Positions 29,397-60,700 of a stretch of 64,000 nucleotides of DNA are shown one piece after another; position 1 is the first letter of the stretch, and each line of letters opens with the position of its first letter. The DNA is from Macrostomum lignano. Its lineage: Eukaryota. A model generated the notes under the pieces. It saw only the letters and a list, made by a program, of their open reading frames with translations, was not told the origin of the DNA and searched no databases. The stretch lies in the NCBI GenBank assembly GCA_002269645.1, contig NIVC01000471.1, positions 1 through 64,000 of the forward strand, in the 5' to 3' direction. The position numbers and the translations under genes were made by a program.

Positions 29397-29485
29397 TTTG
29401 ACAGAGTTTCACGGTGATAGAGCTGTTGCAAAGAGTGTCGGAGCGAGCGAGCGAGAATTCTGAAAAATCTCTCAGCAGCGTGGTC

Positions 29486-32545: not shown

Positions 32546-32815
32546 ATAATAATGTAGTCCTTGCGACTGACTATTAAATGTAAATTTTTGTATTGCTAAA
32601 ATTATTTGAGTTAAATCTATTTGTTGTACGATAATTTGCATGTCAAATGTACATAAAGCATTTTTGTATTGTATGCGGTGAAATTTCCAATGTAAAAATC
32701 TATTGTACATATTTTGTGTGTCAAACTTGTTTAAAATCATTAATGAAATAAAAATTATTGAAAAACAATACAAAATTTTCTGTATATTCTATTTGCTGAT
32801 AATGTTGTACATAAA

Positions 32816-35800: not shown

Positions 35801-37368
35801 ATTAAACAGCGCTTGTCGCGGTTAGCGATGACCACGTAGTTATACCCCATAGCATGCCTGGCCTGGATGTGTTTCTCCTTCACATCCAGGCTGCCGCAGC
35901 CGCCCCGCGGGACCCAGGCCTTGAGCAAAAACAATTTAAAGTTTTTGCCCAAGACACTGGAGTCTGATTGCAGAACCTTGTTTATATGTTTAAATATTAA
36001 CTCTGCAGTGAAGCGGCTGCGGCGGACGGGCGGGACATTGATAGCGAGCAACATGTCGTCGGCAGTCATCTTGGCCGAGACGAAATCATTGGCGTGTAGG
36101 TCAGCGCAGAGCGCAGAAATTATTTTTTCGAATGTGCTTCGAATATCGATAGTATCGGCGAAGAATACCACATATTCGTAGCCCTTGGCTTTAAATTTAG
36201 GCAGGGCTTTCGCCCCGCCAAGATGCGCATTGAAGCCTTAAAAAATGGAGGGTCTGAAATTAGAATTGCGAGAGGGGGCGGGTGAATGACTCATGAAATA
36301 AAATCAACTCCTTACCATCGCCTTCGACAGTGTCGGGCTGGGGCGGGGGTTGAAATTGAGCCAAATCTGCAATAAAAATGCGCATGGTGACTAAAATTCT
36401 GACCGCTTCGGATTTTAAAAACTGTCAAAAACTTAATTGATTGCCCTGCAGCAGCAGCAATTTTATAGCCCCAGGCCCAAGCAACAAAAATCGGCGAGTT
36501 GTAAAAACCCCAACTCGGCACGTTCCGACACGTAGCAACAAAAGAAATGTGGGGTTGATTGACCCCCGCTTCGAATTTTAGGCTGTCAAAAATGTTTGAC
36601 CCTTGATAACACAAATCCTGCCGCAGCAGAGATTGTAAAATTTAAGAAACCCCCCTATCAGCACGTGTCTCCATTGTGCCTCCTTGACACCTAGCAACAA
36701 TACCGCGCGGCCGCTAAAGCTGTCATAAATGCCTGATTAATAACCTTACCTGTAGCAGCCAAGTTTTATTGCTGCCAAAACCCCTACAATTGCAGCGGTG
36801 ATTACATCATCATGATAAAAAAATTTTGGGGTTGATTTTATCACTGCCACCTGCCCGCCCGCTGAGTCACGTTCGCGCGCGCGCGCTCGCCACAGAATTG
36901 CTGTTTTTGCTTCTCTAGTACAAGGATTAGTCATATAGCCCCCTGAAATTTTATGGCTATCCTCTACACACATTATTCGGCTATACTGCTGCTGCGGATA
37001 TTCTCTAAAACTCTGTTATTTCATTAGGCAATTGAGAAATCCGAAAACAGTTTCCTCCCTTTACTTCAACATCTATGGCAGGAGGAGGACAGCCTGACTT
37101 CAGAAATTTTAAGCCAAAATGAATGCTAAAGATGAAATGCAGCTGTGGTTTCAAAGAAAACCCATATTTCAACAAGCGTTAAGTTTGCAAATCACACAAA
37201 TGCTAAAGCTGAAAAGCGCAATTATACAGCCCTTTTTTCTGATTTTAGATTTTGCAAATGCTAAAGATAAAAAGCATAGTTTTACGCGCGCGCAGAGACT
37301 CACCTAGCTGTCATCCCCTCTTTGCGGCCGGAGGCTGATGCTGCTGCTGCTGCTGCTGCTGCTGCCTG
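32816..37368 (-). mobile_element. Polinton-like element copy C (inverted): PolB-side TIR plus pPolB exons 1 (partial) to 4, with the palm deleted
   Basis: TIR at 32816-33217. Exons 37304-37368, 36316-36366, 35659-36236 and 35576 onward. ExoIII YCLSDTVLL and VSR-like KVDG...QFHGCFYHGC. Deletion junction near 33815. Confidence 0.87.
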
Positions 37369-38280: not shown

Positions 38281-39297
38281 TTACTGCAACATGTTAAACT
38301 CGCTTGGTAGCCGATGTTGGTGCGGCCAGCCGCACTCTTGGCCGAGCCAGCGAATTTCGAGGCCGAGGCTCTGTTCATTAAAACGACGAGGGCCACTGCG
38401 AAGGTCCGATAGCGCGTAATGCACAGCGCGCCTCCAGGCAGCAACTGCGTGCATGGGCTGCAGCTGGCGCAAATTTTTTAAAACCGGCCGCAGAGTCTCG
38501 CGCTGAGGGAATTCGCGCCCGTCTTGGAATCTACCAGCATGGATCAAATAAAGTTTGATAGCCGTAATCATGCGGCGGAAGTCGGCACGCTGGACTTCCG
38601 GCAAGCTCTCGATGGCTTGTGTAAAATTCGCGCATATCTCCTGTAGAGGCTGACTCTGCCTGACGAACCCGGCCATCAGAGGCGGTACACCAGAATCCAG
38701 CGGCTCCATTTTGATCGGCGGAGCGGGGCGGGGACGCGGCTGATTCATTGGCCTTACTCCGTAAGTCGGCGGCGGGGTTACTAGGGGTTTCGCAGGCGGC
38801 TGCTTCGGTGGGGAACGGGAGCGGGGTCGAGACTCCTGCTGTGGTGATGGACGGGGTCCAAGTCGCTTGCGGATGGACGGCGGCGGAGCTTCGGCCGTGG
38901 TCAAGACGATAGCCGACTTGGCGTTGGGGGGTTGGCGCTGAATGGCGGCTGGGGAGACGGCAACTGGTACGTCGGCGTGGCGCTTGAGCAGCTTAACTCG
39001 CTCTTCTTGGATAGATGGTGGGCGGACGTCTGGAGTGGATGACGGTGGGCGAGCGTCTGACGTAGGCGGTGGTGGACGAGCGTCTGAGGTGGACGGCGGC
39101 GGCGGACGGGTGACAACCGAAGCGATTCGGGGCTTTGGGCTGGGCTTACTTGGTCTCGTAGGCTGGCGCTCGGGGGCAGGCAAGTCGTCGTCTGATTCGT
39201 TGTCGAAGTCACTGTCGTTAGAATCGCTGAGACGGAGGTCGTCTTCGAGTTGTTTAAGACTCTCCTCAGAATACATGATCAGAGACTGATTACTCAA
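38281..39297 (-). CDS. G1 accessory ORF (338 aa; acidic and Pro-rich N-terminus, helical C-terminal domain), function unknown
   Basis: Long open frame between integrase and the 3' LTR, co-oriented with pol. Confidence 0.55.
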   Translation of the reverse strand: MSNQSLIMYSEESLKQLEDDLRLSDSNDSDFDNESDDDLPAPERQPTRPSKPSPKPRIASVVTRPPPPSTSDARPPPPTSDARPPSSTPDVRPPSIQEERVKLLKRHADVPVAVSPAAIQRQPPNAKSAIVLTTAEAPPPSIRKRLGPRPSPQQESRPRSRSPPKQPPAKPLVTPPPTYGVRPMNQPRPRPAPPIKMEPLDSGVPPLMAGFVRQSQPLQEICANFTQAIESLPEVQRADFRRMITAIKLYLIHAGRFQDGREFPQRETLRPVLKNLRQLQPMHAVAAWRRAVHYALSDLRSGPRRFNEQSLGLEIRWLGQECGWPHQHRLPSEFNMLQ

Positions 39298-41746
39298 TCA
39301 GTATAGGGTTTTTAAAAATCACTCGGATAGTAGAATTTTTTAAAAGTCGGGCTTGACAGTAGTAGAATGGAGCGGGTAGCGGGAAGCTTGTGATCTGATT
39401 GTGCAACGGGCTCAAATTTGCTTTTATTTACGAACTCTTGTTTACAGTTAGAGGGGATCCCTATGTTTTCGTAGCCCACCTCATTTTCTACGTTCTTTGG
39501 GCTCTAGTTTTTTTGTCGATCGATATTTTAAAGGGTTCTTTGTGCATAGCAGGGGTCTAGTCGAGGGCTTTCTTTGTCTAAAATTTGGGGTCTGTTGGGC
39601 GAATGGGGACGGCGAGGGAGGGGTAGGAAGGTGTAGACGGGCTAAAACTCTAAGTTGCGCAAGAGGTTTAGTGCTAATAGTAGTCTGTCTAGATGGCAGT
39701 TGCAACGCTGTTTATTTTGGGGTGGGGTCCTTAAATTGTAGGTGTGACGGCGCGGGGATTCGGGATCTCGCGGGGCAGGAGAGGGGGGTTGGGGCTCAGG
39801 GATTTCTTCGTTCGGGGCCTCACTCTCTGACTCATCGGTTGTTTCATTTTCTTCCTCTGTCTGGGCTTCATTCCATTCTTCTGACTGGGCTTCATTGTCT
39901 TCTCCTCCTACCTCTTCGTTCTCTGCTTCTCTAATTTGGCATTGCCAATTAATTCCTGCTTCATCGGATGATTTTTCAGATTCAACAGAGTTTAATTCTG
40001 GTGATTTCCGGCGGGGGTGGCCTTCCTTAATTGCAGGTTGTCTCTTAGGTTTAGTTGAGGCGGGGATTGGAGCGGGAGTGGGAATTGGACCGGGAGCGGG
40101 ATTAGGGGCGGAATCAGGGGCGGGGGCTGCAATATGGGCATCTCGCTGGCCTTCCTTAATGATTTGTTCTGCGGTTGAATTCGGGACTGGAGTTAAGTTA
40201 TCTCGATGCACAAGCATTTCTCTTTCTATTAGTTCTCCTTCTTCTTCCTTCTGGACTTTCAAAACTACGTCGGACAATTGTGCTAGAACTCTAAAGGCGG
40301 ATCTCTTCTTTCTATGGAATTTGTGGGATTCTTCGGCGTCTAATTGGGGATTGTTAATTAAAACAAGGCAACCTATGGGGACTCTCGGGGGGAGCTTATT
40401 GGTTTCTGCGGCGGTCTTTCTTTTGTCAACTATCTTTTCCAATTTCTTCTTGACTATTTTGTGCGCTTCTTCTAGTCTTTCAGCATGTTTAGTAATGTAG
40501 GCAGGATAGTCAGCATGTTCAGCTGCATTTCTAATTTGGGTATCTAAGGGTAGAGTAGCTTCTCTGCCGAATAATAGAAAATGTGGGGAGAATCCTGTTG
40601 TTACATTGGGGCTGGTGCGAACGGCTACTTAGGCTGCGGGAATTAGTAAGTCCCAATCACCGTGATCTTTATTGATCAAGCAGTGATAATTGATTTGACT
40701 TGCTTATTAAAGCGTTCCACTAATCCGTTAGATTGGGCATGGTATGGGGTAGTAAAGGTGTGGCGAATATTATAAAGTTCTCAGAAAGCTTTAAATTGTT
40801 TACTAGCGAAGGTTGTTCCATTGTCTGTGTGGATCCAGATGGGCTGTCCATATTCTGCTACTATTCGCTCGAGTAGTATCTTGATGACCGTATCTGATTT
40901 TTTATTTCTAATGGGAAAAGCGAACGGATATCGAGTGGTGCTATCTACAACTGTCAGAACGTATTTGTGACCTCGTTTGCTTTCTTTTGAGATTGGGCCG
41001 ATAATGTCTATGTGCAGGCGGCTGAAAGCTTCGCCAATGGGGAATGATTGGATAGGGGCTTGCACAAAGTGGCCTTTCTTACTCTCGAGACAGGGGATGC
41101 ACTCAGCAATCAACTGCTCATCTGAGGTACTCAATGCGGGTTGCCAAAATCTTTCTCTTATTCTCTGGAGCGTCTTATCTCTTCCTAGATGTCCTGCGAG
41201 GGGGCTGCAGTGTAAATCAATAAAGACTGCTTTGTCTAGGGATGGGGGCAAAACTACTTTGTTCTTTCCGTCTTCGGCAATTGTTAACAGATAATTATCG
41301 ATTTTCATGGCTTCGAAGTGTTTACTAATTTTCTCGGGCACGTCCGGTGATTCGGGGAGTTGGCTCAGTTTCTGTGATTTAGCTTCTAATAGAGCTCTAA
41401 TGATGGGATCAGCAGCTTGGGCTTCTTGAATCTGTTCTTTCTTCAGGGGGCTGGGGAGATAATCGGTTAACAGTTTCTCGCACTTTCCTGTCTCCTTTTC
41501 TACTTCTCTACCTGAGACATTCAGCATTGTCCTAGATTCGGGACATTCAGGCTGGGTCTCGCTTTCTGTCAGGGCTTTAGGTGACTGGGACATGGGGTTG
41601 TCCTTAGTTTCAGCGGGAGCACTCTCATCTCTCAGGGGAACAGGGGTCAACTTCTCGACTTTCTCAGGGATTGGCTCAGGGTTCTCAAAATTTTCTTTAG
41701 ATGCTTCAGGGGCTTCAGGGATCGCTTCAGCAGGCTCAGGGGCTGC

Positions 41747-42324
41747 TCAAATGTTTTAGAATAATGTGTTGCGGGGGTGTGCCCCTCTGACGATGACTAT
41801 GATCGTTGATGTTGCTGTTGAATCAAATAAGTCGGAGGTTCGATTTGTTTCTCTCGATCTCTAACCTTCAACAAGATGTTTATTACTAATCAATGTTAGT
41901 AGCAATTCCTAATAGGATATTGATCACGCAATTACGCAAATTTGTTAAGCAATTCAGTGAAAATGGAGCCACAGGCTACTTATCGATATTGTTGCACGAA
42001 TTGACGTTTGTCCGGATTTATCTCTGTTAAATCGGGATATTAGAGTTCAGGCCCGATTGTTGGGGCAAGCTAGCGGAGCAGTTGAGGAGGCAAAGAGGCG
42101 GAGAGCCGAGAACCGGGAAAAAACTGGAGAGAGGCTTCATTCTCACTGAACGCTAGTATATATATGATTTCTATAACGCATTTCATTGGTGTTCGCTTCA
42201 CGCAATAGGATCTTTACTGGTGCACAAGCATGTGCTGTACTTTCCTGATAGAAAAACCTTCTGAAGTTCGCATTAGATTAAAAAATAACATTGGGCATAA
42301 CATGCTTAAATTAAGATCACTTCA
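41747..42324 (-). repeat. G2 3' LTR
   Basis: Direct repeat of 54534-55111. Sense-strand ends are TGAAG...TTTGA. Confidence 0.95.
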
Positions 42325-44031
42325 TTGCCCTTATTTCACAAAGCGAAGGCCCACCGAGCGGCATAAGCAAAAGAAAACAGGTGTTGGATTATTAGTGAAG
42401 TTGTAACTAATGCTACTTGTATACGAGGCGCAAGGTGTAGGCTAGAGAAAGTGGATAAAGTGGTGAGTAAAATGGTGAAAATAAGCATAGAGCATGGCTT
42501 AGGAAAGGGTATTAAATATTAGAGTAAAGCTGTTGAAACCAAAGTTAAATGAACAGAGGAATAGCAAGGAGGATAAAATAAGTTTCAAAAGTGGCTTATT
42601 AAAGGGTTTGCTAAAACAGACAAAGACAGATAAAACAGAGAATTTTCAGATGGACGAAAATAGGCAACAAGTAAAGTTAGAGGTATAAATAAAATTGAGT
42701 AAAGGACAGTCAAACGAAATTGAGATTATTAAAGAAACGACTGGGACGCAAGGTGAAAAAGAAAGCTATTTTTAATCAAGGGTGTAGAATGTACATTGTA
42801 CGTGGGGTCGAAGAGATTATTGGCTTGGGGTGGGTGTTCGTAGAGCGCGTGAGTGTACACTGAAGCTAAGTCAAAGGAAAGGATGGAGTCGCGTGGTATA
42901 AATAAGATAAAAACGATAGGGAGGGAATTTTCTAGTTCAGGTTTTGTCCGCAATTGTTTTTAAGTTTCGATATAGCTCGTTTTTCATTCAAGTTAGATTA
43001 GTCAATGGCTGGTCTGTCTTTGGGAAGAGAGCAAATTACAGAGATCGCGGCTGGTATTCTCCAGGGGCGGCACGCGTACTTCATTTCCATCAGCGCGGTC
43101 GTCGCCATCATGCTGCTGCTGCTGTTACTGCTAGTGGCGGCGTTTGTAGCCTGCTGTTGTTGCTGCAAGTGTTGTTGCTGCTTTGGCGGCTGCAGCCGCT
43201 GTTGTCGCGCACCATTGCGGCCCGCTGCAACTGCCCGTGTCCAGGAGACTGCGGTGTAACTGCACAGTTGGTCTGCCAAGTCTTCTGCGTCCTTTGGGCG
43301 CCAACGTCAAAACGGCCTTTTTCAAGGCCACCACGTGTCAGATAGTGCTGTTCGTCTTAGTTTTGTTGCAGCCAGTAGGGTTTCTGTAGTCAGGCCGGTG
43401 TCGTAGTTCGTAGTTAGCCGTAGTTGTCGGTAGCAGGCATGTATTCTGTTAATTCGGAGCATAGCAGGTTGTTTCCAAGTAGTAGATAGGGCTGGGCAGT
43501 GGGCCGGGTTGGTGTTGAACAGAGTCGAAGCTGAATTTCGGTCAGGGCAGCGTGTAGAGCCGGATTGCAGTGTAGAGCGGGACGGCTGTGTAGATCCGGG
43601 TAACGCGTGGTCTTACAAAAGACCGAATAGGGATTATGAGGTGACGAAAGAAAAGATCATTGAATTCACGTGGGTGAGCAAAAGTAGAGAAAATGGTTCT
43701 GATAATTTTTCAAGGGTGAGTGATAGTAATTAAAGGTAAGCAAATAAAATATAGGGCTAAAGCGTTTGACGACAACAGAATAAAACAATAATTTTGATAA
43801 GAGTGTTGAGAACTGACATTTCTACTGTGAGTAGCAAAAGAGTAGCGTATTGTCAAGGAAATTATCTAACGAAGATAGATAAGTTGAAGCGGAAAATGAT
43901 AAATTGCGATTTAAGAGGAAGAAAGATAAAATATATAATTATAAAACTAATAGAAATAATATAAACGAATATAATTTTCAAAACGTATCGATAATCAACT
44001 GTCCATCGATAATCAACTGCCGCGTATTGAT

Positions 44032-47000
44032 TCACACATCCCGTGAGCGCAGATGATATCGCACAGCTGGAATAGGTTCTAGTCCGTGCTGATCACGAGT
44101 GTCAGGCTCATCCACGACGTCAGTCTGAGTAGCGTGATGCTGTGCCAGTGGCGGGTGGTGGTCGAAGTGAGTCTGTGGTATCGATGATGTGAAGTTCGGC
44201 AGATTGAGTTCCTCTTGTGGTTGAAAAGGGGAACGTTTTAGCTTGGAGGCATGGACTACGAATGGTGGCTCTGTCAGCTTATTAATATCCTGGATTAGCG
44301 CATTCTGTGGGCTCAGCCATTTTAGAATTCGCATCGGTCCTCGGAACGGATTAGAGAACTTTGTCGGCTTAGTAGCAGATATGTCTAAGTAACAGCGGGA
44401 GCCTATGGTGAGCTTTTGAGCATTAGGGGCTTTTTCTTCGTTCTGTTTCTGGGCCCGTTGATCGGCTGTAGAGTGTAGGTGATGGAGAGCAATTTCTCTG
44501 GCCAATGTGATCGCTGAGCAGGTCAAGCTGATTGGTTGGATTTCCTCGGTGTAGATCGATATTTGATTTTCGAGGATTCTTGTGCTGGGTGCCAGGAAGT
44601 CACGGGCGTAGAACAGGTAGAATGGCGATTCCTTCATGGCAGTGTGGGCTGCGGTGTTCAACGCAAGAGTCACTGCTGGCAAATATTCGATCCAGTGATC
44701 GGGCTTGTCGTGCACAAAGGTAGTTAGTGTCTGTTTGAGGTTTCGGTGGGCACGTTCTACGAAATTGCTGGATGGTTGATAGACTGATGTGTAGATCAGT
44801 CGGATTCCCATTGTGTCCATGTACTCGCGGAACTCCTTGGAAATGAACTGTGGTCCATTATCAGAAATCAGACAGGCCGGAAGTCCGGCTATCGCGAAGA
44901 CATGTCGAAACAAATGGTTGCAAATAGTAGACGTGGTTGTATCAGCCAGTGGTATCGTGAACAGAAACTTGCTAACACCACACTGAGCTGTCAAGATGTA
45001 CTTGTACACATCTCGCATGTAATGAGCCGGTGGTAACGGTCCTACAAGATCAATAGCCAGGTGTGAGAAGACACTGCGGAATTTCATTGCTTTCTGTTCT
45101 GAACGCAGTCGAGGTCCTGATTTGGCTTTTTGACAAATCTCGCATTTGTTAACGAAGCTTGTCACGTCTGCGTGGCAATTGGGCCAATAGTAGAATTTGC
45201 TGAGTCGGGACAAGGTTTTCTGAAGACCAAGGTGTCCTCCAAATGGAGAGGAATGGCATTCCTGAAGGAGAGCGTCTCTGTAGGCGGTTGGGATCACCAG
45301 ACGTGGTGTCGACGAGTTAGGACTACGAGAGTCACCTTCCAATGGATCGTAGTAGAGTGTGTCGTTGGTGTAGTAGAAGTGGTGTAGATGTTTCGTCAGA
45401 TGTTTTTGTTCTGTTTTCGATAAGTTCTTGTACATGGATGTTAGTACGTCGTCTTTTTGGTTCTGTAGAGTGGCTATCACTGTCGCACAGAATGGGTCTT
45501 GGTTTACTGCTTCGTGCAAGTTGTCAAAGGCTGGGATGGGATGTAAAGTATTCACACTAGGAATACGGGACAGGCAGTCGGCTACAGCGTTTGAGCGGCC
45601 TTTAATATAGTGGATCGAAAATTGGTAATCCTGTAGATGTAGAATCCACTTTTGCAGTCGTTTCGAGAGAGGCTGTTTGTCAGTGAACAGAGATTGCAAC
45701 GGTTGGTGATCCGTGAACACTGTAAATGGTAGGTGTGAGGCGTATAGGAAAACATGGAGCTTCCGAATCGCCCAATAGATGCATAGGCTTCTCTCTCAAT
45801 GGCAGGATAACGTTGTTCCGTCGGAGTCAAAGTTTTAGAGATGTAAGCGACGGGTTGCAGATGTCCACGCGAATCGTGTTGAGAGAGGACTGCACCAAGA
45901 GAGTAGTCAGAGGCATCCGTATGAAGCACGTAGGGCTTTCGAGGATCAGGATGTACTAGTATAATATCAGTTGACAGAATCTTTCGGATGTTGTCAAAGG
46001 CCGTCTGTGTGATAGTAGTCCATTTCAAACTTTTTGTAGCCAGAGCGTCTTTGAGAGCACGAAGCAATGGTGTCACAATCGTAGAGTATCCTTGTACATG
46101 CGAGCGATAAAAGTTGGCAAGTCCGAGGAAGGACTGCAGTTGCTTAGGTGTCTTAGGTTCCGGGAAGTTCTTAATTTTTTCGACAAGCGCTGGTGCCGGT
46201 CGGATTCCATGTTCGGACACTTGAAAGCCTAGATACTGTACTTCGTTCTTTGCAAAGGTGCATTTTCTAAGCGAGATACGAAGACCGTGATGGCGGAGTT
46301 TCGCCAAGAAATGTCTGAGTTCACCCAGCATGCCATTAAAGTCCTTTGCGATTAGGAGTACATCGTCCAGGTAGGCGATAAGATTAGGTGAATCTGCTGT
46401 GAGTAGAGCGACTAGACGACACATCAGACTGGGAGATGCGGCCAGACCCTGTGGCAAGCGATTAAACTGAAAAAGGAGGCCATTAGGTGCGATGAAGGCG
46501 GTATATTTGGCGCTGTCTGGGTCTAGTCGGACTTGGTAAAACGCGTCGGCAAGGTCGCACAACGAATAAAGTTTGGCGTCGCGTAGGCGGTTAGGAGGTC
46601 CGGTATACGTGGCGGGCGTATGCTTGGTGTTGTTAGAATTCGGTTGAGACGGCGAAAGTCAACGACAAGACGCAATTGGCGGCGTCCTTGTTCATCAAGT
46701 GTCTTCTTTTCGACCAGTAGACATGGGCTTGAGTATTCCGACTCGCTAGGGCTGAGTATTCCTTTGTGGATGAAATTCTCGATCAGTTGGTCAAAACGCT
46801 CTTGAAGACCATGTGCAATCGGAAAAGGTCGCGATGTAATTGGATGCGTATGTGGTTGAACGTTAATTGTGGCGGTATATTGAGTAGTGCATCCCATATC
46901 CGTAGGTAACAGAGCCAGCGTATCTCGGTACTCTAAAAGTAGGTCGCACAGTCTCGTAGCTTGTTCGGGTGTCAGATGCGAATTGTTAGGCCGTGTTTGT

Positions 47001-50000
47001 TGTTCAATTAGCTGGCGGTCGGTCTCAGGTCGTGCGTGCGAGGTAGAGATGGTATTGACTGTTGCTGTAGGTTTTGAAGTAACAGGTGTATATTCCGCGG
47101 GATCGGACAGACTGCCTAATCGTGTTTGAGCATAGAGTGTTACTGGCTGTAGTGAAGGGTTAGCGATCTGTATGAGGATCGAATTACCCGTTTCATCTGT
47201 AAGCGTCAAGCAGCTTGCGATTAAGAGCTTATAGCGTTGAATAGTATGATCCTTTGGTATGAATAGGACAGGCTGGCGCTTTGGATAGGTCGTGTCGATA
47301 TTCGCCTGTATCCAGGTGGTAGATTGAGCGGGTATGTGAGTCTGCTTTGGCAAGTAGACTTCAGCGACCTCAGTTGCTGTGTAAGTATTCAATATGGGAA
47401 ACGAAGTGCCATCGATTTGTGCTTCTGACTTGGCGTAGTCAATGGACAGTGGTATGCCAAGGGATTTAAAGGTTTCGACACCGAGAATTAGATCATAATC
47501 GGGTGGCATAGCCTCCAATATGTAAGCTGTGATTTTCCGATTTGATGATCCGATGATCATACTAAATTTAGCCTGTTTAGTTACGTTAAGAAGTTGTCCT
47601 CCTGCACATTGAACGCGTATTTTACAGGGTAAAATGTCAGCCTGTAGTTTCTGTGCGAAGGTAGGTGAAACGCAAGAGATAGAGGCGCCACTATCAATCA
47701 GCGCGGTGCACTTGCATTTGGTCATTCTTGGGCTTGTGCACCAGAGCGTGATGAGGGTTCGCATCGTAAGATGTTTCAAGACGGTGTTGTAGGCAACCGG
47801 CCAGTGTTGAAGTGTCGGGTAGAGTCTTGAATCTGTCCGTGAAGAAGTAGACGGTATAGCTGGCTGTCGTTCTTCGAGTTCCATAGGTGGAGCTGATGGG
47901 GCTGTCGCCTTTGTGTTTCTCCTAGAGGGCGAAGTAAGTACTAATGGTACTAACGACACGTGGTCGGAGGTAGTAGGAAGTCGCTGTGGGCTCCGGTTTT
48001 GTTGCGGTGATGGGTCGGTCGTTCGCATTACCATAAGGCGGTGTGTTCGACCATAAGTTAGTGTGTTGGCAACGCAGATTCGACCAATGTTGCAAAGGAA
48101 AATTAGTAGTGCAGCGTAGACAATTACAGCAGAACTGAACAGAAACTTCTCCATATGATTCTGTTGGAATCTTTCCCAACTGAAGAAGGTAGATGTCCAA
48201 AGATTCTGGTAAGCTTCCAAGGCGTTTAGGCCAAACTGCTTGAATTCATCCTTGTGGAGACGTCCAGTAGCGTTGTTTAGTTTAAAGACAGTGATTAGAA
48301 AATCACGTGTTTGGATGAAACTTTCCATCATGTCAGTTATTGTTACTGGTGATCGTAAAGCGCTGTAGTTGACGTCTCCAAGTGGCGTGAAGATACTCTG
48401 TCTAATGTCGGAGTATAAGGACTGTAGGAGGTAGGTTTCGTCGGATCTATTTTGTGCTTCTATCGGACTAAAGGAGCTGAAGTTGGCTGTGGCTTTGTAG
48501 ATGAATTCACCCTTTGGAAGATAGTAGTCTCGTAGGTAACGGCAGGATATTAGTGGTGGTCTTGCTGTTGAGATGATCGATGTCGTTGTATCGAGGAATC
48601 CGAGAACAGACTTATTGTGGAGTTGAAATTGTATCGGTGGTCTTGTGTAGCATTCGTCTCGTGAGTATCGCGGTTGAACGAACTGGAACTGACTTAGTGG
48701 CTTACATTGGTGAACAAAGATGTAGCCAGCGATGGAGTGCGCATAAATGAATTTGTCAGCGAATAATTGACGCGCAGCTAGTGTCGGATTGGTATAGTAT
48801 AGGTTGCGACTATAGCGAAGATTCAAAGCGTACATCTTGCACTGCGTAGTCGTCAGTTGAGTGTGTAGTTTCTTGAGATCGAGTAGAGTCTTCGATTGAA
48901 GTCCTTGTAGTTGACTGGAGAGAAGCTGTGCCGAAACGAGGTTTTCTGATAGCTTGAGTTCAGCGTTGGTGATGTTGACTGTTTTGTCTGGAGGTGGAAT
49001 CGCGCGACGGATTCTGTCCTGATGTTCCAGCATTGGTGGTTGGTCGCGGTGTAGGTATGGTATATTAAGAGGATCAGGTTCCAGTATGGTAGTAGGTGTT
49101 GTAGACATAGGTCCAGGAGTTAGTTGTTCGGTGGTAATACCGGTAGATGTCGTCGTTTTCGTAGTTAGCGGACTATACGACGTAACTGTAGTTGTGGCTA
49201 CTGTCGTTGGTAGAGTTGTAGACTTAAGTTGAAGAGATGTAGTGTGTTGAGGTTTTCTAAGCGACATCGTTGTTGTGGGTGTTTGAACTGTACTAGTCGC
49301 TATTGTCGTAGTTGGTGGAGTTGTAATTTCCAGATTTAGAGGTGTGGTAGTAGATTTTTTAATTGTAGAGGTAGTGACAGTAGGCTCGGATGTAGGTGAA
49401 GCTGTATCAAGCGTCTGCTGTGAGGGTAGAGACGTAATAGTTGGAGCTTGAACTGTCGTCGGAATCGGTGTGGTTGACGGTTGTTCTGTGGTAGCCAATA
49501 AGTCAGGTAGTGAACGGCTCTGTCGAGAAGATGAGCTGCTGTCAGCTGTTAAAGCATCCGCGGCTTTGACAGAGCGTGTTGTGTTGCTCGTGGTGTCATC
49601 AGCTGTAGATTGCACAATCGCGATTGACTTTAAGAAGTCTTCTTCTCTGTTGTCGAGCACTTCAACGTACAGTTCTTGTTCGGAAACATATAGTCGTTTC
49701 GTTCCAATTGAGCAGGTAAGGCGGAAGGGTTGAAGCGGCAATTTAAAGGTCAAAGCCAATGTCTGTTCTTCGTTAATGAAGAATCCCGAGTGTATGTTAC
49801 CTCGAATTTGTCGGAATGGCGTGAGTATACAGTCCGAACGGCTTGTTGTTTTCCACGTAAGTGTCAGTTTTCGTTGGCCAGTAACGGTCAGTTGTTGTGT
49901 CGCCGGTGGGTCGAGAGTGTCCCATGCGTTTTGAAGGAGAGTTGTCGGTAGGTTATAGCGTTTCATGTTGTCAAAGGTTGTCTCAATAATGCAGCCTTGA

Positions 50001-52587
50001 GATGAATAGCTACAGTGTGCCATGGAGAAGGCTAACGATTCCATTGGTTTGCTAGGAGAGGCGAAAGCTATTATCCCTTGTATGAGTGTTGAAACTATTT
50101 GAGTTCGTGCCTTGCGATGGTAACAGTCTTCGAGGAAGGAGGTTCCTGTATTGGAGCGAGAGATTTTGTAGTTTCCAGTGGTGGCAACCAGTTGAAGCTG
50201 ACCATCAGGTGAGTTATATGATTCGGTCCAATGTTGGCAATCTTGTGCGGCGACTGTAAGTGGGCGTAAGGTTACGTACGCATCACGGAGAGAGCGCAGA
50301 ACCTGGCTCATTGGGAGGCAATTAACCGAGATTTCCTCACGGAAGCATAAGCTGACTGGTGTTCTGGTTTGCTCCAGGTTAGTAGAGTAGAGCTGTAAGT
50401 GCACTGGTGTCGTAACGTCCTGTGACGACGTGAACTGTTCGCATCTGATCTGCTGAGGAATCTTGAAGATGCGCACGGGTCCATCTAATGGACAGAGCAT
50501 TGGTGTGTCCACGTAGAGTGGATGTTGCTTAGGATTCGATGGCAGTGGTGTTGTCTGCACCGTCGGGAATAGCGATAGCCAGATGAGTGTCACGAGAAGC
50601 GTCGTTAGACCAGTTAGTCGACGTCCTTTCTGCTGAGACAGTGGTCTTTTTACGTGTACCTGCTGTCGCTGGGCACGTAGCATATCTTTTCTTAGCTTTG
50701 GTTGAGCGGCTGATAGCGTAGTGTACGGTTGAACGTGGATGACTGACAGTGTAGATGGACTGTCGCGGATTAATTTCTTAAACTGCCTGGTCGAGCCATG
50801 GAACTTGTACTCAATTGGTCTGTCCAAAGCATAGGTTGGAGTAGCCGTTGATTTTGCCACAGGAACCTCAGTGAGACGCTGTGGAGCACTGGGTGTGCTG
50901 TTCGGTGGCACAATTTGTTGAGGCGAGTCCATAGTCGGCAGTTGTGGCATGGGGTCGTTCGAGACAACCTGAATTGAGTTTACACCGGCTGCAGGAGGGC
51001 GCGGTGACGGTGTTCTGGAACGTCCGTGGTTTGGTGAATCAGAGTGGCGTTCCCGTTGATATCGTTGAGTGGGGTTGCGCTGAAATTGTACGCGCCGGCC
51101 TAGATTATACCGCTGTGGGTTATTGTTTGTTGTTCTCCCCTGTTTAATATCGTGTAGGGTACGACATTCTTCGGTATCATGGGTGTCCGAGTTGTGAAAG
51201 TGGCAGTATTTGGCTGGAGAGCCTGTGTCTCGGCTGCGAGGATCATCGGAGCCTCGTCTGTACCGGTCTTGAATCGGTTGATTGCGTGTCCACTTAGAGT
51301 CAGCCTGTCTTGGTTGTCTAGCATTGGCAGTTTGTTGGCGTGCATTTCGAGGATCCTGGTAGCATCGATCTGTTGTGTGTCCAATCCTGTGGCAGAATTT
51401 GCACGTTGGTGGTTCTCTAGTATTGCTAGCGCCTTGAATAGCCGCTACTATTGGCTTGGGCTTGATGGTTCCACATTCTAAGGCAGCAAGGCGTTTTTCT
51501 ATATCGGCCGGAACGTTGTTTGGGGCCGTTAATTGTGAAGACTGCTGTATTTGTTCAAGGCGAATGGCCTGGTTGAGCAGCTGTTGTTCGGTATTCAGCG
51601 GGTTTCGCAGTAGTTCAACGCGAAGGTGAGGTAGAGCGCCACTTAGTATATGGCCGATCAATGTTTTGTTAAACATTTCATTTCGTTGGTCAATGACCGC
51701 TTGGTTAGCCGGTGCATTTTCGCCATCCACGGGTGGTAGTGGCGAGACTTCTGGGTATATGGCACGAAGTTTGCGGCGAATGTCCGTGTAGTACTGGATG
51801 AATGGCTCACCCGGGAGTTGTCGGCGGTTGGCGATGTGATGTAGTGCCGAAGTGGATCCGAGAGTGAGTACCGCTATTCTGTCGGACAGAGACCGAACTA
51901 ATTGGGTGTAGTCATTTTGTGTCTCGGCGGGTAGAGCGGCATATTCGATCTTTAGGAGATCGTTGAGGAGCCGAGGAAAGATGCGAAGCTTTGAGTTTTC
52001 ATCTAGATTAAAAGTTCTCGCTGATAGATCATACTCCATGATGAAAGAGGCAAAATCATGAAGTTGATCTATCTCCTTGAGACCTTCGCGGATCTCGTTG
52101 ATGGTACTAGCTGGGATTGCAGCGTGTGGTCTTTGTTGATCTCGCACAGCATTGATAAATTGTTGCATTAGTGCTTCTGCCATTGTAACGTTGCTCTCAG
52201 TTTCCTGGATATTGGCGTTATTTTGATTCAAATGATCAGGTTGCAGAAGTGGCTGTGGAGGATGTTGTTCTTGTTGCTGCTCGTACAACTCAGAAGGTTG
52301 TTCTTCGTCTCTGGTGCCGATGGCAGTGTTTTCTTGATGGGGCCAGGTAGATGGCAAAATGTAGCTGGGGTAGCTGTTTGTGTTAGTTGCTGTTGGGTGT
52401 CGTCAGTATGGTGTCCTCCAATGCCAGTAGAATGTCCACCAATACCAGTAGAATGTCCACAAAAGCCAGTAGAATCACCAGAAATATCAATAGGATTTTC
52501 AGCGACACTGGCAGAATTTGGTGTGGATATTGCAGGCGGCTCTTGTTGTTGTTGTTGTCCGAGTTGGGTACCAGAACGCAATTTCAT
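44032..52587 (-). CDS. G2 single polyprotein Gag-Env-PR-RT-RNaseH-INT (about 2850 aa; three apparent 1-nt deletions near 52360, 46590, 45780)
   Basis: MKLRSG start at 52587. Gag CA-like region; CCHC CKFCHRIGHTTDRC and CHFHNSDTHDTEEC; PR LIDSGAS; RT YLDD; RH TDAS; INT H-H-C-C, IDLVG, SDNGPQF, ERAHRNLK. A 1944-aa ORF spans Gag through the start of RT without a break. Confidence 0.9.
48060..50620 (-). other. gB-like (class III) envelope glycoprotein domain inside the G2 polyprotein
   Basis: Internal signal-like helix LTGLTTLLVTLIWLSLFPTVQT; Cys-rich ectodomain; Thr-rich mucin-like block; RIRR furin-like site; QLQ...QC...NPTLAARQL...A...G.IFVHQC...ECYTRPPIQF...GFL; C-terminal TM FLFSSAVIVYAALLIFLC. 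Confidence 0.72.
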
Positions 52588-54520
52588 GCAATGATCTGTG
52601 GAATGGGTTTACTTCGAGTGGTCTTGCAATTAAGAGTTGAAAATATAATCCGCAATTTTGTAACAATAAAGATTTGAAATAGCGTGAAGCAATAGCATCT
52701 GAGCGTGATTTGCGGTCATCTATCCAGGGTCAGTTTTTTGTTTTATATAAGCAAATTTTCAATATGTAGAGCTTCGGTAGCTGTAGTATCATTTATCAAA
52801 AGTGTGAGTTTAGAGCAATTTTGAGCAAGTGTTGAACAGTTGTATAAAGTAGAACTGAGTAGAGTCGGCTGATGCGCCTGTACTAATTATAATATAGCTC
52901 AGCGGTGGAGCAGTTAAAATATTTCATAGAAGCAGCAATAAAAGCTGAGCCTCATCCTTGGATTGAGTTTGATTAGAATTTGAACAGATTTTGGTAGAAG
53001 ATTCAGCGGAGGCGGCAATTTGCGCGTTAATGCCTTTGAGATCGAACGGATTGGGTTGAAAACTCAGCTGGTGAGTTGTGGTTAAGATGCCAGCGGATGT
53101 GGCGATGCGTGTTGAGTACGCGATTTGAATTTGTTGTAAAAGGAACGAAAGAGACTCTGCAGAAGTCTGTGGAAGCAAGGCAGAGGCGTATGAGTGGCGT
53201 GCCAAAACTTCAAACTTGGAACACGATGAGCATGAACCAAGCACCAGTCCTGGGTTTAAGTGTGTAATTGACAAATAGATTCGGCCGACTAAAATAGAAT
53301 TATAATTACCTGAAGGCAGGTGTAGAGGTCCTGTGTATAGGACAATTGCCGCGGGCTTATCGCTGCTAATCATGAAGAAATGATGTGGCTGCTTGAAATT
53401 GAGAAACAAGGAATAGGGAATAGGAGAGGGTGGGTAGCAATCACAGCGTAATTTTTATTTTGTTTTGAGAAATTTTGAACGACTGCGAAGGCTAAAGGGC
53501 TGGTGTATGGGTAGACGAGGGTGGTAGGTTGTACTTTGCGGAGAAGGAAAGCGGATTGTAGTATAAATAAGAGCTTGGGACGGAAATTATTCCCATTAGA
53601 GAACAATGGGGGTTTCTGATGGGAAAGCCCAAGGAGGGGAAGCAGCCATTGAAAAAAAAATGAATTCCCTGGGGTAAGAGAAGATTGAGAGTACTGAGAG
53701 TGTCGCACCGGTGTGACAGAATCATTCTCCCTCACTTTCTATCCCTGGGGATGAGAATTGCAGCGGAGAGAAGAGCTGGAGCGGATCACAGCTGAATTGT
53801 GGTAGGGCGTTGAGCCAACTGAGTGAGGCGCGGAGCCGATAGGGCGTTTTAGCCAACTGAGTGAGGCGAACTGAGGCCAGTTGAGGCTGGTTTGTGAACT
53901 GATGCAGACCGGAATGGAACTAGAATTTCCAGAAGACGAAAAACGATGCAGATCTGCTGTGAACCAGCCGGAGTAAAGGCGGAATTCTCCGGACGAGAAC
54001 TGGTTTTGCGAGGCTAAAAATAGAAAAAGGATTGAGACAATGCTGGTTGCCTGGTTGGGATTTGTCGCCCAGGCAGGATATTTATAGAACAGAGTGAGAT
54101 TGTGGAGAAAGAGCAAGGTGAACTTGACGTTCTTTGAGGTGAGGCGAGCAAAGTACTCGGAGAAAGTATATCAGAAGGGCGTAAATAGTGGGAATGGGTG
54201 GATTCCCATCGGAACCGGTTTGAGGACTGGTTCGCTGCTGGTTCTCCGAAGCGGGAGAGCGATTAGAGGTTGTAAATTTAAGAACATTAAATAACACTAA
54301 TCTTTTCTACGATTCTACAGCTTGGGAGATTCATACACGTAGTATTTTTGTAGTTTTGCAAATTGTATTGGTTTTTATATTTTGTAATTTTTTTTAATTT
54401 TTATATTTTTTACTGACCCTTTCTAAGATGCCATCACTAGCTCATAGCCAGCTCCACGGAGGTGTTCACCCCAGCATATTAAAGCCGGGCATGTTGAAGG
54501 AAATTACGGAGAGAAACAAG

Positions 54521-54532
54521 GTCGGGGAGCCA
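54521..54532 (-). promoter_or_regulatory. G2 primer-binding site, probably tRNA-Asp
   Basis: TGGCTCCCCGAC lies 1 nt after the 5' LTR. It is complementary to the 3' end (…GTCGGGGAGCCA) of invertebrate tRNA-Asp(GTC), as recalled. Confidence 0.7.
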
Positions 54533-54533
54533 G

Positions 54534-55111
54534 TCAAATGTTTTAGAATAATGTGTTGCGGGGGTGTGCCCCTCTGACGATGACTATGATCGTTGATGTT
54601 GCTGTTGAATCAAATAAGTCGGAGGTTCGATTTGTTTCTCTCGATCTCTAACCTTCAACAAGATGTTTATTACTAATCAATGTTAGTAGCAATTCCTAAT
54701 AGGATATTGATCACGCAATTACGCAAATTTGTTAAGCAATTCAGTGAAAATGGAGCCACAGGCTACTTATCGATATTGTTGCACGAATTGACGTTTGTCC
54801 GGATTTATCTCTGTTAAATCGGGATATTAGAGTTCAGGCCCGATTGTTGGGGCAAGCTAGCGGAGCAGTTGAGGAGGCAAAGAGGCGGAGAGCCGAGAAC
54901 CGGGAAAAAACTGGAGAGAGGCTTCATTCTCACTGAACGCTAGTATATATATGATTTCTATAACGCATTTCATTGGTGTTCGCTTCACGCAATAGGATCT
55001 TTACTGGTGCACAAGCATGTGCTGTACTTTCCTGATAGAAAAACCTTCTGAAGTTCGCATTAGATTAAAAAATAACATTGGGCATAACATGCTTAAATTA
55101 AGATCACTTCA
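54534..55111 (-). repeat. G2 5' LTR
   Basis: Direct repeat of 41747-42324; followed by the PBS. Confidence 0.95.
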
Positions 55112-57742
55112 CTGCGACAGGGACTTCAAAAACTTCAGATGCTATTTCAGCAAGTTCAGGGGCTGCTTCAGGGGATACTTCAGGGGCTTCAGCTATCTCA
55201 GCTGGTCTTCTTGACAATCCGTCGGCATTGGAATGCTTTGCACCGCTTCTGTGTTCAATGTCGAACCTGAATTCATTTAGACGCTCTATCCATCTACCTA
55301 AGATTCGGTTGCTTCAGTCTATCTCATGAGCCAAATTATCGCTTTATGATCAGTTCAAGCTAAGAATTTCTTGCCGATCAGATAAAATCTGAAATGCCTC
55401 ATAGCGTCGACAAGGGCTAACAATTCTTTCCGAGTAATGGGGTATCGCTTCTCAGATTATTTCATTGCTCTACTAAAATAAGCTATTGGTCGCTCTATGC
55501 CATCACTCTGGATTTGGCCAAGGCATGCGCCAATCCTGTCGTCACTGGCATTTGTGTCGAGCACCATCTTCACATTCTCATCATCGACATATTCGGGGTA
55601 GGCTAACACTTCAGTGGATATCATTCGCTGCTTTAGGGACTCAAAGGCTTCGTCATGCACTTTGCTTCACTTAGATTGGAAATTCTGGACTCCTTTTCGG
55701 GTCAATTGGAATAGGGAGTGAGCCACTTCGGCATAATTTTTCACAAATCGGCAATAATAATTGCATAGGCCAAGAAAACTGCGTAGTTCTTTTACGTCTT
55801 TGGGACGGGGCCAAGTTTAAATTGCTTCAATCTTCGTCTTGTCTGTTTGAATGCCTTGTCGGCCAATCACGTGTCCTAAATACTTTAACTCGTGATGGAA
55901 AAGATTGCACTTTTTGGGTCTCAACTTCAGACCTGCGGCAATTAGTCGCTTAAACACTTCTCTTAAGTGTTCTAAATGGTCTGCAAAAGTTTAGGAGTAG
56001 GCTATAATATCGTCTATATAGGACATAGCGAACTTGTGTTGAATTCCTAATAGTACTAAATTCATTAGACGTTGGAAGGTTCCGGGGGCATTGGAAAGTC
56101 CTTGGGCCATCACTTGGTGTTCAAATTGGCCTCTAGTTAGGGTGGAGAAGACGGTTCTATGCTTATCTTCTTCTTTGATGGGGACTTGCCAGTATCCTGA
56201 GTTTAAATCAAGGCTGCTAAAATATTGGCTACCAGTTAGGTGGGAGAAGGTCTCTTGGATATTGGGGAGGGGGTAGGGGTAGTAATTAACTCTCGAGTTG
56301 AGCACACGGAAATCGATAACTATTCTAATGGAACCATCTTTCTTGGGGACAATTACTAAGGGGGTGGAGTAGGTTGAGTAACAGGGTCTAATTAGGTTTT
56401 TGGCTAACATATCAACTAATTGGGCGTCAACTTGCTTTTGCAAGTGTGGGGGGATGCGTCTGGCTGGGATTCTAACGGGAGTGGGGTCTTTGATGGATAT
56501 TTCGTGGGTTACTAAGTGTGTCAGGCCCATGTCTAATTCATTCTGGGAAAAAGCTTCACGGTTTTCTTTCATTAAGTCGATGACTGCTTTTCGCTGTTCA
56601 TCTGACAGTTCAGGGCCAAGGCTCACTTCATTAATCCATGAATCTTCTGTACATTGAGTCTGGTTGACTTTCGCAGGGGGTTGGGAGCTGGGGGGTTGGG
56701 TTTGCCAATAGGTTAGATCTTTAGCTTTCATGGGTCTGGCTAAGCCAATTAGGGAAGTCTTAGTTAAATTCACATCTACTGGGTGGCGGTTAATAATTTC
56801 GACAATTCCTCTGCCTTCTTTCATAGTTACTAGGGTTGGAACCATTTCTAATGAGAAATCGCGGGTTCGGATAGTATCGCCAATGGCTTCTATGGTCATG
56901 GGGGTGCCGTAATTCGATTCACAATTCTTGGCTAACTTTACGGGTATTCGGAGAGCACTATTAGCTGGGATGATTGTTCTTTATTGAGTATAAACTCGGC
57001 AAACTTTCACGGGTAGGCGGGTATACTGCATGGATATACAAGTACCTTCGTTAAGCACTAGCATTCCTTTGGCTAGCTGAATGCTTTCGCATTGGGATAG
57101 GAAAAATTCCATTCCTAAAATATTATCGCAATCATGTCGGCATAGGAGGAAATCAACTTCAATTTGGATATCGCCAAACTTCACTTGGGCGGATACTTCT
57201 CCTTCTAATTGAACTGGGTTACCGTCAAATGTACTAATACTTTGCTAGTTTCTTGGATTTGATCGGCACGGAATAGCTTAGACCAGGTTGAGCGGCTCAG
57301 GAAATTATTTCTGGCGCCTGTGTCTAGCAGAAAATCAATGGTCTCTTTCTGGATATCGCCGACAATTACAGCTTCATAGCCTTCTAGCTTAGTCAGGTCG
57401 ATTCGGGATGGGGAATTGGGTTTTGGCTTTTGTCGCTTCCTTGAGCGACTTTCAGCACTGGATAGAGCATTATTGACTTCAATCGCATGGGATACATGGG
57501 GTGCAAGCGCAGTGGGTACATGGGGTGCGGACGCATGATGTACATAAGCTTTGGTCGCATTGGTTACATGAGAGGCGGTCGCATGAGGAGAATTGTACAC
57601 ATGGGGGTCATGGGGGGCATTTGGCATGGCATCGTCGGCATCATCAAAGGCAAGAAGTGAAAAATTGTTGGGGGAGACAGATATCGCGTTATTTACAGGC
57701 ATTGGCTGTACATGGGAGGTTTTGCGGGGATAGCGGAAACCA

Positions 57743-60700
57743 CGCGAGACTTGCCGCCTCTCCAATGGCCTGCATAGCACTGCCAATATTCTGACTGGCC
57801 GCGATCTGGGGAAGGAATTCTCCAATTGCGTCAGCCGCTCAAACTGCGCCTGCCAAATGGCCGACTTTGTGGCTGTGGGGCCGACCTCGCTGAATGCTTT
57901 TTTCGCCTGGCTAAGCACCACATTCCGAGCCGGCGCTATCGTTGTCGCGCACAATGCATCAGGCTATGATTCATTTTTACCGCTTGGCGCTCTACTTAAC
58001 GGCCTGGCCAAGAAGCGGCCCCAAGTGTTGTTCCAGGGCAGTTGGCTAATGTGCATGACGGTGAATAAATTGGTATTTAAAGACTCGCTAAACTATATAC
58101 CAATCCCGCTTGCGCAATTCCCCAAAGCTCTGGGGCTGGAAACAAAGCTGGCCACGACCTTTCCCCACGAGTTCAATAAGCCGGCCAATTGGAACTACGT
58201 GGGTCCCTTCCCGGCTATTGACTATTATGGCGACAAGGCAAACAACGATTACGGCTCCATCTGTGCTTGGCTGGCCTCGCGACAGGGCGAGTTGTTCAAC
58301 TTTAATCGGGAATATCTCGATTATTGTTTGAGCGACACGGTGCTGCTTCGCGAGGGCTGCATCAAGTACAGGGCGATAATTGGTGAAATTTGTGACGGCC
58401 TGGAACCGTTTGTTCAGGCCAACACAATTGCCAGCCTCGCAATGGCCGTCTTCACCACTAACTTCCTGGAGCCCAACTCGGTCGGCGTGATTGCCCAGCA
58501 GGCTGACCAGCAGTCGTTCAAGGCGCGCAAGTGGCTGACTTATTTGAATGCCACTGAATTTGGCGGGCAGCTGCGCACGTGCGACTCGACTAACGGCGGC
58601 GAGACTGTCATACTCGGCCGCAAGGTGGACGGCTTCAATGAGGCCAGCAACACTGTTTTGCAGTTTCATGGCTGTTTCTACTATGGCTGCGAGCAGTGCA
58701 TGCCCGATCAGGATGTCGTCCACACGCTCAAGCGGCAGCCTTTGAGCCACATCCGCCACGAGACTGAGTGGTTACTCGCGAGTTGGAGCGGCATAATTAC
58801 AGTGTTCGTGTCATTTGGGAGCATGAATACAACTCTGTATTGGCATCGCAGGCTGATTTTATCGCCGCAACTGACCATCTGCGCGCCCCGCTCAAGATGG
58901 AGGATGCGCTCTATGGCGGGCGCGTAGTGTTTCATCCCGCATGCTGTGGCCAGCGAGACTGAGACGCTTAAATATCGGGATGTGGTGAGTAGTGATACTA
59001 CTAATATAGTAGAATATTTGTATTTTTGTATAGTAGAATTTTGCAAAAATATGAAAAACCGTTTATGAAATATATATTTGTTTCATTGACTGCCATGCGG
59101 GTCTCTCTGTACCCGACGGTGCAGTCGAAAGACCCGTACCCGATTGGCCACCCGGTGAACCACCCGACGCCGCAGGAGCTCGATTCTGACGCGCTGGCTA
59201 GCTACTTTGGCATTGCCAAAGTGACTGTGCTGCCACCGTCGGATTTGCACATTCCGCTGTTGCCATACAGGGTGCAAAAGAAGCTCTTTTTTGGGCTTTA
59301 CCGCACCTGTATAGAGCAGCCGCAGGAGCAGTGCAGCGGCTGCCACCCCTCAGACGAGGAACGGGCGCTGACTGGCACCTGGGCAACGCCGGAGCTGCGG
59401 AAGGCCTTCCAGTTGGGCTACTAACTGCAAGTTGTGCATTCGCTAGCCTATTGGACAGAGCAGCGGAATGGCCTGTTCAGCGATTACGTCAATACCTTCC
59501 TCAAGTTGAAGGCCGAGTCGAGCGGCTCCCCCGACATGACTGATGAAGACAAGGCCGCCTAAATTGCCGATTTTTTACGCTAAGGAAGGCGTCACGCTGG
59601 TCAAAGTCGAGCCCAACCCTGGACTTCGCTTTGTAGCGAAAAAATTTTTGAATTCGTAAGTAATCATAAATTCTGTTTTTTAAACGATTTCTTCTACTAA
59701 CAGGAACCAATCTTTTCACAAGCTCTGGGGTAAATTCTGTCAGCGTGACGACCTGACATCGACAGAAATAGTTTCCAGTTACGAGGACTGGCTCGCCCGG
59801 CTGACCGAACCCAATCTCGAAGTCAAAGCCTGCGAACCGATTGGCAGCGAGTTTACGCTGCTTGAGCACCGGCACCGCTACTTTAATCAGCGGCCGTTCC
59901 GCTACTCCAATGTGCATATCGGGTTTTACGCAGACACACAGGCCCGGCTGCGCCTGTACGAGGCCTTGGAGGGTCTCTGTGAACGGGCCATTTACTCCGA
60001 CACCGACTCGTAAGTATTGCAGGCTGGATAATTTCTTTTAGAATTGATTACGTATCAATTCCTAACATGTGAAATCCGAACTAATAGCCTATTTTCTTCC
60101 CCCCACCCCCAACACACACACAGGGTCGTTAACCGCCATTCCGAGGGCCAATGGGAGCCGCCCCTATGGCACGAGCCTTGGAATGTGGACGGGACGGATG
60201 AGGTGCCCGCAGGCAGCCGAATGACCGAGTTTGTGAGTGGAGGGCCCAAGCTCTACACTTACACTGTCGAGGATGCGGCTGGGCGGAGGAGCCAGGTCTT
60301 GAAATGCAAGGGCATTCGCTTGACTCCTGAGATTCGGGAGAGCAGTAAGGACTTGCGCACCACGCTGTTACACGGCGGCTCTCTGCAGCTGCCGCAACTT
60401 CAGTTCGGGCGCGACAAGACGTTTCAGCGCGTGCTGACTAAACGAGTGTACGACGGGGCTGTGTGCAGCCAGCCTTATGGTTATAAATAATGCGGCCCTT
60501 GTGACTGACTGACTATTAAATGTACATTAAAACATTTCTGCTTGTAAAAATTTGTAAGAGTAAAATCTATTTGTTGTTTTACATATTTTGCATGTCAAAT
60601 TTACATAAAACCGTTTATGAAGAGGAACCGACCGACTATACAAATGTACATAAACCTTTTGTATCGTATGCAGTGAAATTGCCAATGTAAAAATCCATTG

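Follow-up and report, generated by a model that had tools for sequence, protein, structure and literature searches.

A recently amplified Ty3/gypsy family of Macrostomum lignano with a predicted gB-like fusogen encoded in frame between Gag and protease

An LTR element with a single Gag-Env-protease frame

We analysed a window of 64,000 nucleotides of Macrostomum lignano DNA (contig NIVC01000471.1 of assembly GCA_002269645.1, positions 1 to 64,000), which contains a long terminal repeat (LTR) retroelement on the minus strand, lodged in an older gypsy element within its pol frame (Table 1). The minus-strand frame 46523-52402 comprises 1959 codons from stop to stop and encodes, in order, the Gag knuckles, a linker, a signal-like segment, an 803-aa ectodomain, a transmembrane (TM) helix, the protease (PR) and the start of reverse transcriptase (RT). 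The initial annotation had proposed one unbroken frame from the Gag knuckles to the start of RT, and we found it open in the window and, across both domain junctions, in short-read contigs. The 1944-aa open reading frame (ORF) that had been placed at 52357 lies in this real frame but starts at TTG; the first ATG, at 52183, gives 1886 aa. The motifs of the ectodomain are located at 50494 (CP..C), 48913 (QLQ), 48790 (NPT) and 48652 (CYTRP). Only two hydrophobic segments in the frame exceeded the threshold, the signal-like segment and the TM helix, and these flank the ectodomain, in agreement with the signal and TM topology proposed initially.

The pol region of the window copy is spread over three frames, with RT, RNase H (RH) and integrase (IN) reaching 44032. 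Comparison with most sister copies identified single-base length differences near 52340, near 46590 in RT, where the difference terminates the long frame, and near 45780 in RNase H. The break near 52340 puts the upstream Gag ATG at 52587 out of frame. Short-read contigs also differed from the window copy at these three places (4/4, 3/4 and 4/4 runs, respectively). Since contigs merge all copies, real lesions and assembly errors are indistinguishable at the three breaks. Multiple copies and uninterrupted ORFs are properties of the family, while the window copy is broken as assembled.

Table 1. Coordinates of the element and its parts in the window
Feature	Position	Strand	Remarks
Target-site duplication CTGC, 5' side	55112-55115	.	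Equal to 41743-41746
5' LTR, 578 bp	54534-55111	-	Ends TG...GA (not TG...CA); same ends in 6/6 sister copies
Primer-binding site, 13 nt	54520-54532	-	Complementary to 3' end of host tRNA-Asp(GTC) plus CCA
Long 5' leader, about 1.9 kb	52588-54519	-	Short ORFs inside
Gag	51164-52587	-	Capsid-like region and two knuckles; upstream ATG at 52587
Gag-Env linker	50615-51163	-	Low-complexity, basic patch at end; protease-site-like motif near 50985
Internal signal-peptide-like segment (predicted)	50552-50614	-	Hydrophobic stretch 50614-50558
gB-like class III fusogen ectodomain (predicted), 803 aa	48143-50551	-	Profiles and model
Mucin-like Ser/Thr-rich insert	49004-49525	-	Predicted score of the local distance difference test (pLDDT) under 50; position of gB furin loop
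TM helix, then basic residues	48086-48142	-	Hydropathy 2.33
Aspartic protease	47465-47713	-	DSG at 47695; Pfam Asp_protease_2, E 1.6e-6, over cut-off
RT, RNase H, integrase	44032-46830	-	Pfam RVT_1, RT_RNaseH, Integrase_H2C2, rve
Long 3' non-coding region, 1.7 kb	42325-44031	-	Short purine-rich tract at end
3' LTR	41747-42324	-	LTR-LTR comparison
Target-site duplication CTGC, 3' side	41743-41746	.	Equal to 5' side

The element has the LTRs, tRNA primer site, short polypurine tract and target-site duplication (TSD) of Ty3/gypsy elements, and its Pfam domain order (PR-RT-RH-IN) is that of the Metaviridae. The best PDB matches of its RT were 4ol8 (E 1e-39) and the Ty3-G Gag-Pol (4e-38), with spuma- and MLV-type RTs behind (1e-27). 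Judged by these sequence features, the element belongs to Ty3/gypsy (Metaviridae). A Bel/Pao assignment was rejected, as there were no Pao-type Pfam matches and the RT was nearest to 4ol8 and Ty3-G. The Gag knuckles are of the CCHC (51362-51403) and CHHC (51164-51205) types. A Pfam scan found no capsid match for the window Gag; Gag proteins of relatives matched Retrotrans_gag or Ty3_capsid. Genomic tRNA-end sites that match the primer site numbered 20, compared with 0 for the control, and tRNA-Asp identity held for the 2/2 matching sites checked; an Rfam tRNA scan, with 63 of 61948 candidates scored, was uninformative. The 3' region (42325-44031) contains no env-sized ORF after pol. Short ORFs rich in Gln, Ala and Ser are present within it at 42998-43460 (minus strand).

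Copies, recent activity and integrity of the junctions

The genome contains 8 near-identical full-length copies of the element, the window's included, and one partial copy. The two LTRs of the window copy are identical (578/578). Each of the sister insertions with fetched ends (6/6) had its own distinct 4-bp TSD, TG...GA ends and 0-4 LTR differences, indicating that these are independent recent insertions. About twenty more LTR-only matches at 98-100% were found among the 41 matches listed. Together with the intact CTGC duplication of the window copy, this bears out the very recent activity suggested by the initial annotation: the family has recently been active and amplified.

One open frame from Gag to integrase, of 2859-2866 codons, is present in 4/8 near-identical copies. 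A 2852-aa protein in the database, with the label Macrostomum lignano, also extends from Gag to integrase, and is identical over the queried env stretch. The Gag-Env junction is open in 8/8 near-identical copies and the Env-PR junction in 6/8. Short-read contigs from four studies crossed both junctions in 4/4 runs without indel or joint, and contained no stop, frameshift or secondary insertion at the domain junctions; rare forms are lost from such contigs, and the runs are possibly of DNA.

We considered whether the arrangement could be an assembly chimera, or a viral glycoprotein gene secondarily inserted into one copy. The window is repeat-rich and carries a nested element, and single-base indels are scattered in the assembly, which speaks for this explanation. 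It is opposed by the 144 env matches described below and by the same layout in other animals, and was rejected as exceedingly improbable on finding independent TSDs among the 8 near-identical full-length copies and contigs that span both junctions.

The Env ectodomain resembles herpesvirus gB

Searches with the single ectodomain sequence gave 0 matches in the PDB with phmmer, Pfam gB only at E 0.21, and in a word-based search 1 match, the family's own protein. A 7-sequence profile built from the genome matched murine herpesvirus 68 (MHV-68) gB at 9e-7, and 5/7 profile members matched the Monjiviricetes fusion family. With an 86-sequence profile, 54/55 rows were herpes gB, the best at 2e-22.

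An AlphaFold model of the ectodomain had a mean pLDDT of 69 and a predicted template-modelling score (pTM) of 0.59; about 200 of its ~800 residues (about 329-535), rich in Ser and Thr, were disordered. In a Foldseek comparison with the PDB, the listed rows were herpes gB throughout (best E about 1e-14). The VIA comparison gave Z 11.0 to herpes simplex virus (HSV) gB (431 residues aligned, root-mean-square deviation (rmsd) 10.6) and Z 10.7 to domain IV of pseudorabies virus (PRV) gB (167 aligned, rmsd 4.0), with the first non-gB row at Z 6.7. Nyamivirus glycoproteins led the viral fold matches of the model, the best being a nyavirus glycoprotein (3e-21). Global rmsd values of 8-15 A make the domain arrangement less certain than the domain folds. 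The profiles and the model support a herpes-gB-like class III fusogen fold with gB-like domains I-V, and substantiate the gB hallmarks that had been noted by eye in the sequence.

Herpes gB, the nyamivirus and chuvirus G proteins and the window Env share this predicted fold, the cysteine pattern, the central helix and the position of the furin loop. The window Env differs from these viral proteins in its low identity (8-13%) and in its location inside a polyprotein, with no gH/gL partner encoded.

A mucin-like insert at the furin loop

In the window Env the furin loop has grown into a mucin-like domain of some 170-200 aa. It contains 33 Ser/Thr per 60 aa, compared with at most 20 in 150 other proteins, and among the 30/150 proteins in which the loop was measurable none exceeded 21% Ser/Thr. 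Two basic sites flank the insert, a minimal RxxR (49514-49525) on one side and RxRR (49004-49015) on the other; both are canonical in family L056, and only the second in the window family. Three subfamilies of the genome have the insert in common (22/30 loci; the other 8 have broken frames or a missed anchor motif), and it is absent from the L051-L055 families. A shorter loop rich in Ser, Thr and Pro occupies this position in Epstein-Barr virus (EBV) gB, which suggests that the insert is an expansion of a known loop. Our literature search found no report of such a mucin-like insert.

Relatives and selection

The C-terminal half of the ectodomain gave 144 genome matches among 150 candidates scored. 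We fetched six loci, picked for long frames and divergence. The knuckle, Env, TM and protease were in one frame in 6/6, with RT and integrase also in this frame in 5/6, and the TM helix had the same position in 6/6. When 1.84 billion proteins were searched with a profile, 401 matched. Among the best 150 of these, many of which are fragments, a knuckle was present upstream in 51, a protease motif downstream in 51, and the two together in 29, so that relatives of the same architecture are found in the genome as well as in the databases. Homologues were labelled Meloidogyne, Globodera and Caenorhabditis, with single-chain relatives in the latter two; one relative labelled as a bacterial metagenome-assembled genome is probably misbinned. 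Separately, the relatives P0025, P0083, P0097, P0009 and P0064 have two protease-like domains, some with Env between them.

In an RT tree, the four families of the genome grouped together (96/95), separate from a clade with nematode-labelled proteins (96/99). The tree has 24 rows and is midpoint-rooted, and since its single env-less row is partial, it does not count origins of the layout.

The ratio of nonsynonymous to synonymous substitution rates (dN/dS) of env was 0.03-0.11 in two sister-family pairs, with 0.01 for RT and 0.31-0.47 for the Gag-Env linker, the least conserved part. These ratios indicate that env is under purifying selection in both pairs. The cysteines and all gB domains are retained between families at 25-43% identity. 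As a separate observation, dS between L051 and L052 is about 1 in gag and 0.02-0.17 around the Env C-terminal half, TM and protease, which suggests recombination between sister subfamilies.

This selection bears on a reading in which Env is folded and required, though not for infection: in the mucin-bearing subfamily it would mainly be a membrane scaffold joining Gag and Pol, and the element would move within one cell. For Pol to be made, any domain placed in frame in the middle has to keep its frame and cross the endoplasmic reticulum (ER) correctly, which by itself would impose purifying selection; in addition, the fusion loops look weakly hydrophobic and infectivity is argued by analogy. 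However, the env ratios are stronger than the upkeep of an open frame needs, and conservation of the cysteines and of every gB domain at such low identity also counts against this reading. No env-less close relative appeared among the DNA matches, although no search was aimed at them. We consider this explanation highly improbable.

Relation to published elements

The initial annotation implied that the gag-env-pro-pol order is novel. This does not hold, as GAG-ENV-POL Ty3/gypsy "errantiviruses" of gB type have been described in Nematoda, Bryozoa and Platyhelminthes (Chary and Hayashi, eLife 2026, PMC13524379); this was the sole match of our literature search for gag-env-pol retrotransposons, and a search for envelope-bearing LTR retrotransposons in Macrostomum lignano found none. 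According to the text of that paper, the gB-type elements are not monophyletic, their ectodomains lie between a signal and a TM or between two TMs, and their entry mechanism is unknown. The elements described there share with the window family the gene order, the gB-type ectodomain, multiple copies and near-identical LTRs. The paper's main text does not contain 'polyprotein', 'fused' or 'single ORF', nor the preprint 'in-frame' or 'mucin'; its figures may show single-frame layouts or the Env of the window family. It cites Sacco 2022 (J Gen Virol 103:1739) for nematode elements in which ENV and POL are flipped.

The table of the same paper lists nine flatworm elements, one of them from Macrostomum (Platyhelminthes_Rhabditophora_Mlig_errantivirus_2). 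As listed, this element has an LTR of 863 bp and a length of 10.6 kb, compared with 578 bp and about 13.4 kb for the window family, which is also set apart by its tRNA-Asp primer site, TG...GA ends and mucin-like insert. Identity of the two was ruled out by LTR length and primer site. The published Macrostomum primer site is located upstream of L051, L052, L054 and L055 (164 genome matches, 12 for the control). It is thus very probable that the published element is a member of a sister lineage with a single frame; the LTRs of these four families end in CA ahead of the primer site. On the evidence of that table and text, the window family is an unlisted new family of an already published layout. 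This analysis adds the conserved internal signal segment, env selection in the sister families, the mucin-like insert and the TG...GA LTR ends.

The single-frame layout can also be compared with other retroelements. The nematode endogenous retroviruses (NERVs) of Sacco and colleagues are said to have a continuous gag-env-pro-pol ORF, a metavirus RT and a Nyamiviridae-like glycoprotein, and are reportedly restricted to nematodes. By that definition, the window family has NERV-type features in its continuous ORF and in the nyavirus glycoprotein that was its top viral fold match; on the 24-row tree its RT groups in a clade separate from the nematode-labelled proteins. Tas, of the Belpaoviridae, has a gB-like env. 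Atlas virus (Belpaoviridae, PMC9094657) is described as encoding Env in one frame with Gag and Pol; it differs from the window element in its C-terminal Env (Gag-Pol-Env), which is of class II, and in retroelement family.

Proposed topology and processing

Ahead of the Env start, a hydrophobic segment is present in 80/84 relatives (proteins with enough upstream sequence), compared with 18/367 background windows. The motif [VIA]N[STA][ILV] is present at the PR/RT and RH/IN junctions of protein P0003, and also in its Gag-Env linker and right after its TM helix; none of the five occurrences in P0003 is inside the ectodomain. L051 and L052 have the motif after the knuckle and after the TM helix. 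The polyproteins (6/6) retain a basic site within the loop of domain II.

We propose the following model. One long RNA would be translated into one polyprotein, as the observed frame suggests, with Gag produced in the cytosol. Insertion of the internal signal segment into the ER would follow, and signal peptidase would free the Env N-terminus there; the conservation of this segment is consistent with such a role. Once in the lumen, the ectodomain would adopt its class III fusogen fold; with the TM helix acting as a stop-transfer, PR-RT-RH-IN would come out on the cytosolic side, attached to the Env tail. Gag would thus be tethered to the membrane through its C-terminus, and Pol through its N-terminus. 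The C-terminus of Gag is the end that normally faces the capsid interior, and with Gag anchored there the linker cut must precede or accompany assembly. The motifs suggest that the element protease most likely cuts the linker after the knuckles and the Env tail, and that such cuts would set Gag and the enzymes free at the membrane, at the site of budding. Env may be primed by furin-type cleavage within the loop of domain II. By analogy with Drosophila gypsy, Env would serve cell-to-cell, probably soma-to-germline, spread.

If there is no spliced or subgenomic RNA, this model gives a 1:1:1 stoichiometry for synthesis, which would not fix the ratio in the particle. Retroelements normally need excess Gag, and it may be that the single frame, while real in DNA, yields unequal amounts of Gag, Env and Pol by splicing, recoding or subgenomic RNA, with the polyprotein a minor route. 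The 1.9-kb leader and 1.7-kb trailer could carry the processing signals for this. Yet distant families and hosts have retained an open frame without interruption, and no splice joint was found in short-read contigs of 4 runs, which drop rare forms, may be DNA and cannot show absence. We regard separate products as improbable, if less so than the scaffold described above.

Several observations weigh against the proposed model. Just 46/84 relatives have a net basic patch (+2 or more) ahead of the signal segment. The processing motif is short and loose, and is absent at one or both places in L053, L054 and L056, the single L053 occurrence being at the Env start; we therefore treat it as a lead to the protease sites. 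The ectodomain model has a pTM of 0.59 and global TM-scores of 0.3-0.4, and by eye the putative fusion loops of this subfamily have fewer aromatics than those of L051 and L054. For the window family itself, dS is saturated (compared with L029, L032 and L056). That the short-read runs represent RNA is a guess, and expression, particles and fusion are predictions of the model.

Taken with these points, it is nonetheless highly probable that this is a recently amplified GAG-ENV-POL Ty3/gypsy family with an HSV-gB-type Env, of the operational errantivirus/NERV kind, whose single membrane-threaded polyprotein would be cut by its own protease and whose Env would serve intercellular spread. More tentatively, and with the balance of probability against it, assembly of the membrane-threaded precursor may be unlike that of retroviruses, with Gag anchored at its C-terminus via the internal signal peptide, Pol carried on the Env tail and both released by the protease; as part of the same scenario, two furin-type cleavages would excise from the class III Env of this flatworm subfamily a glycan-rich mucin-like piece that serves as a detachable shield or for attachment. 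The family is young and has sister lineages that have or lack the insert, and since its host is probably a laboratory flatworm, topology, processing, tissue of expression and particle formation should be open to direct observation there. Such studies could also tell if the gH/gL partners of herpesviruses are dispensable for a gB-like protein.

Other features of the window

The older gypsy element, which encodes a protease, RT and integrase, is frameshifted and split by the insertion (39642-41746 and 55112-57963, minus strand); a Pfam scan of it gave no env-like domain. Two ORFs of 272 and 338 codons are located at 28590-29408 and 38281-39297 (minus strand). A type-B DNA polymerase gene (Pfam DNA_pol_B_2) is present in several degraded and partly inverted copies at 30470-36565, 57734-58927 and 59717-61696, the first of these regions also containing nested inverted repeats, and by inference the copies are Polinton/Maverick-like. 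Large inverted repeats at 13806-18541 (969 nt at 100%, running on into a 20-nt minisatellite) and 10516-12590 (470 nt at 96%) represent either a foldback element or an assembly artefact. About ten different minisatellites, adjacent to one another and with periods of 17-33, extend from the contig start (365-8900), and several of them share the motif GGATCTGG.

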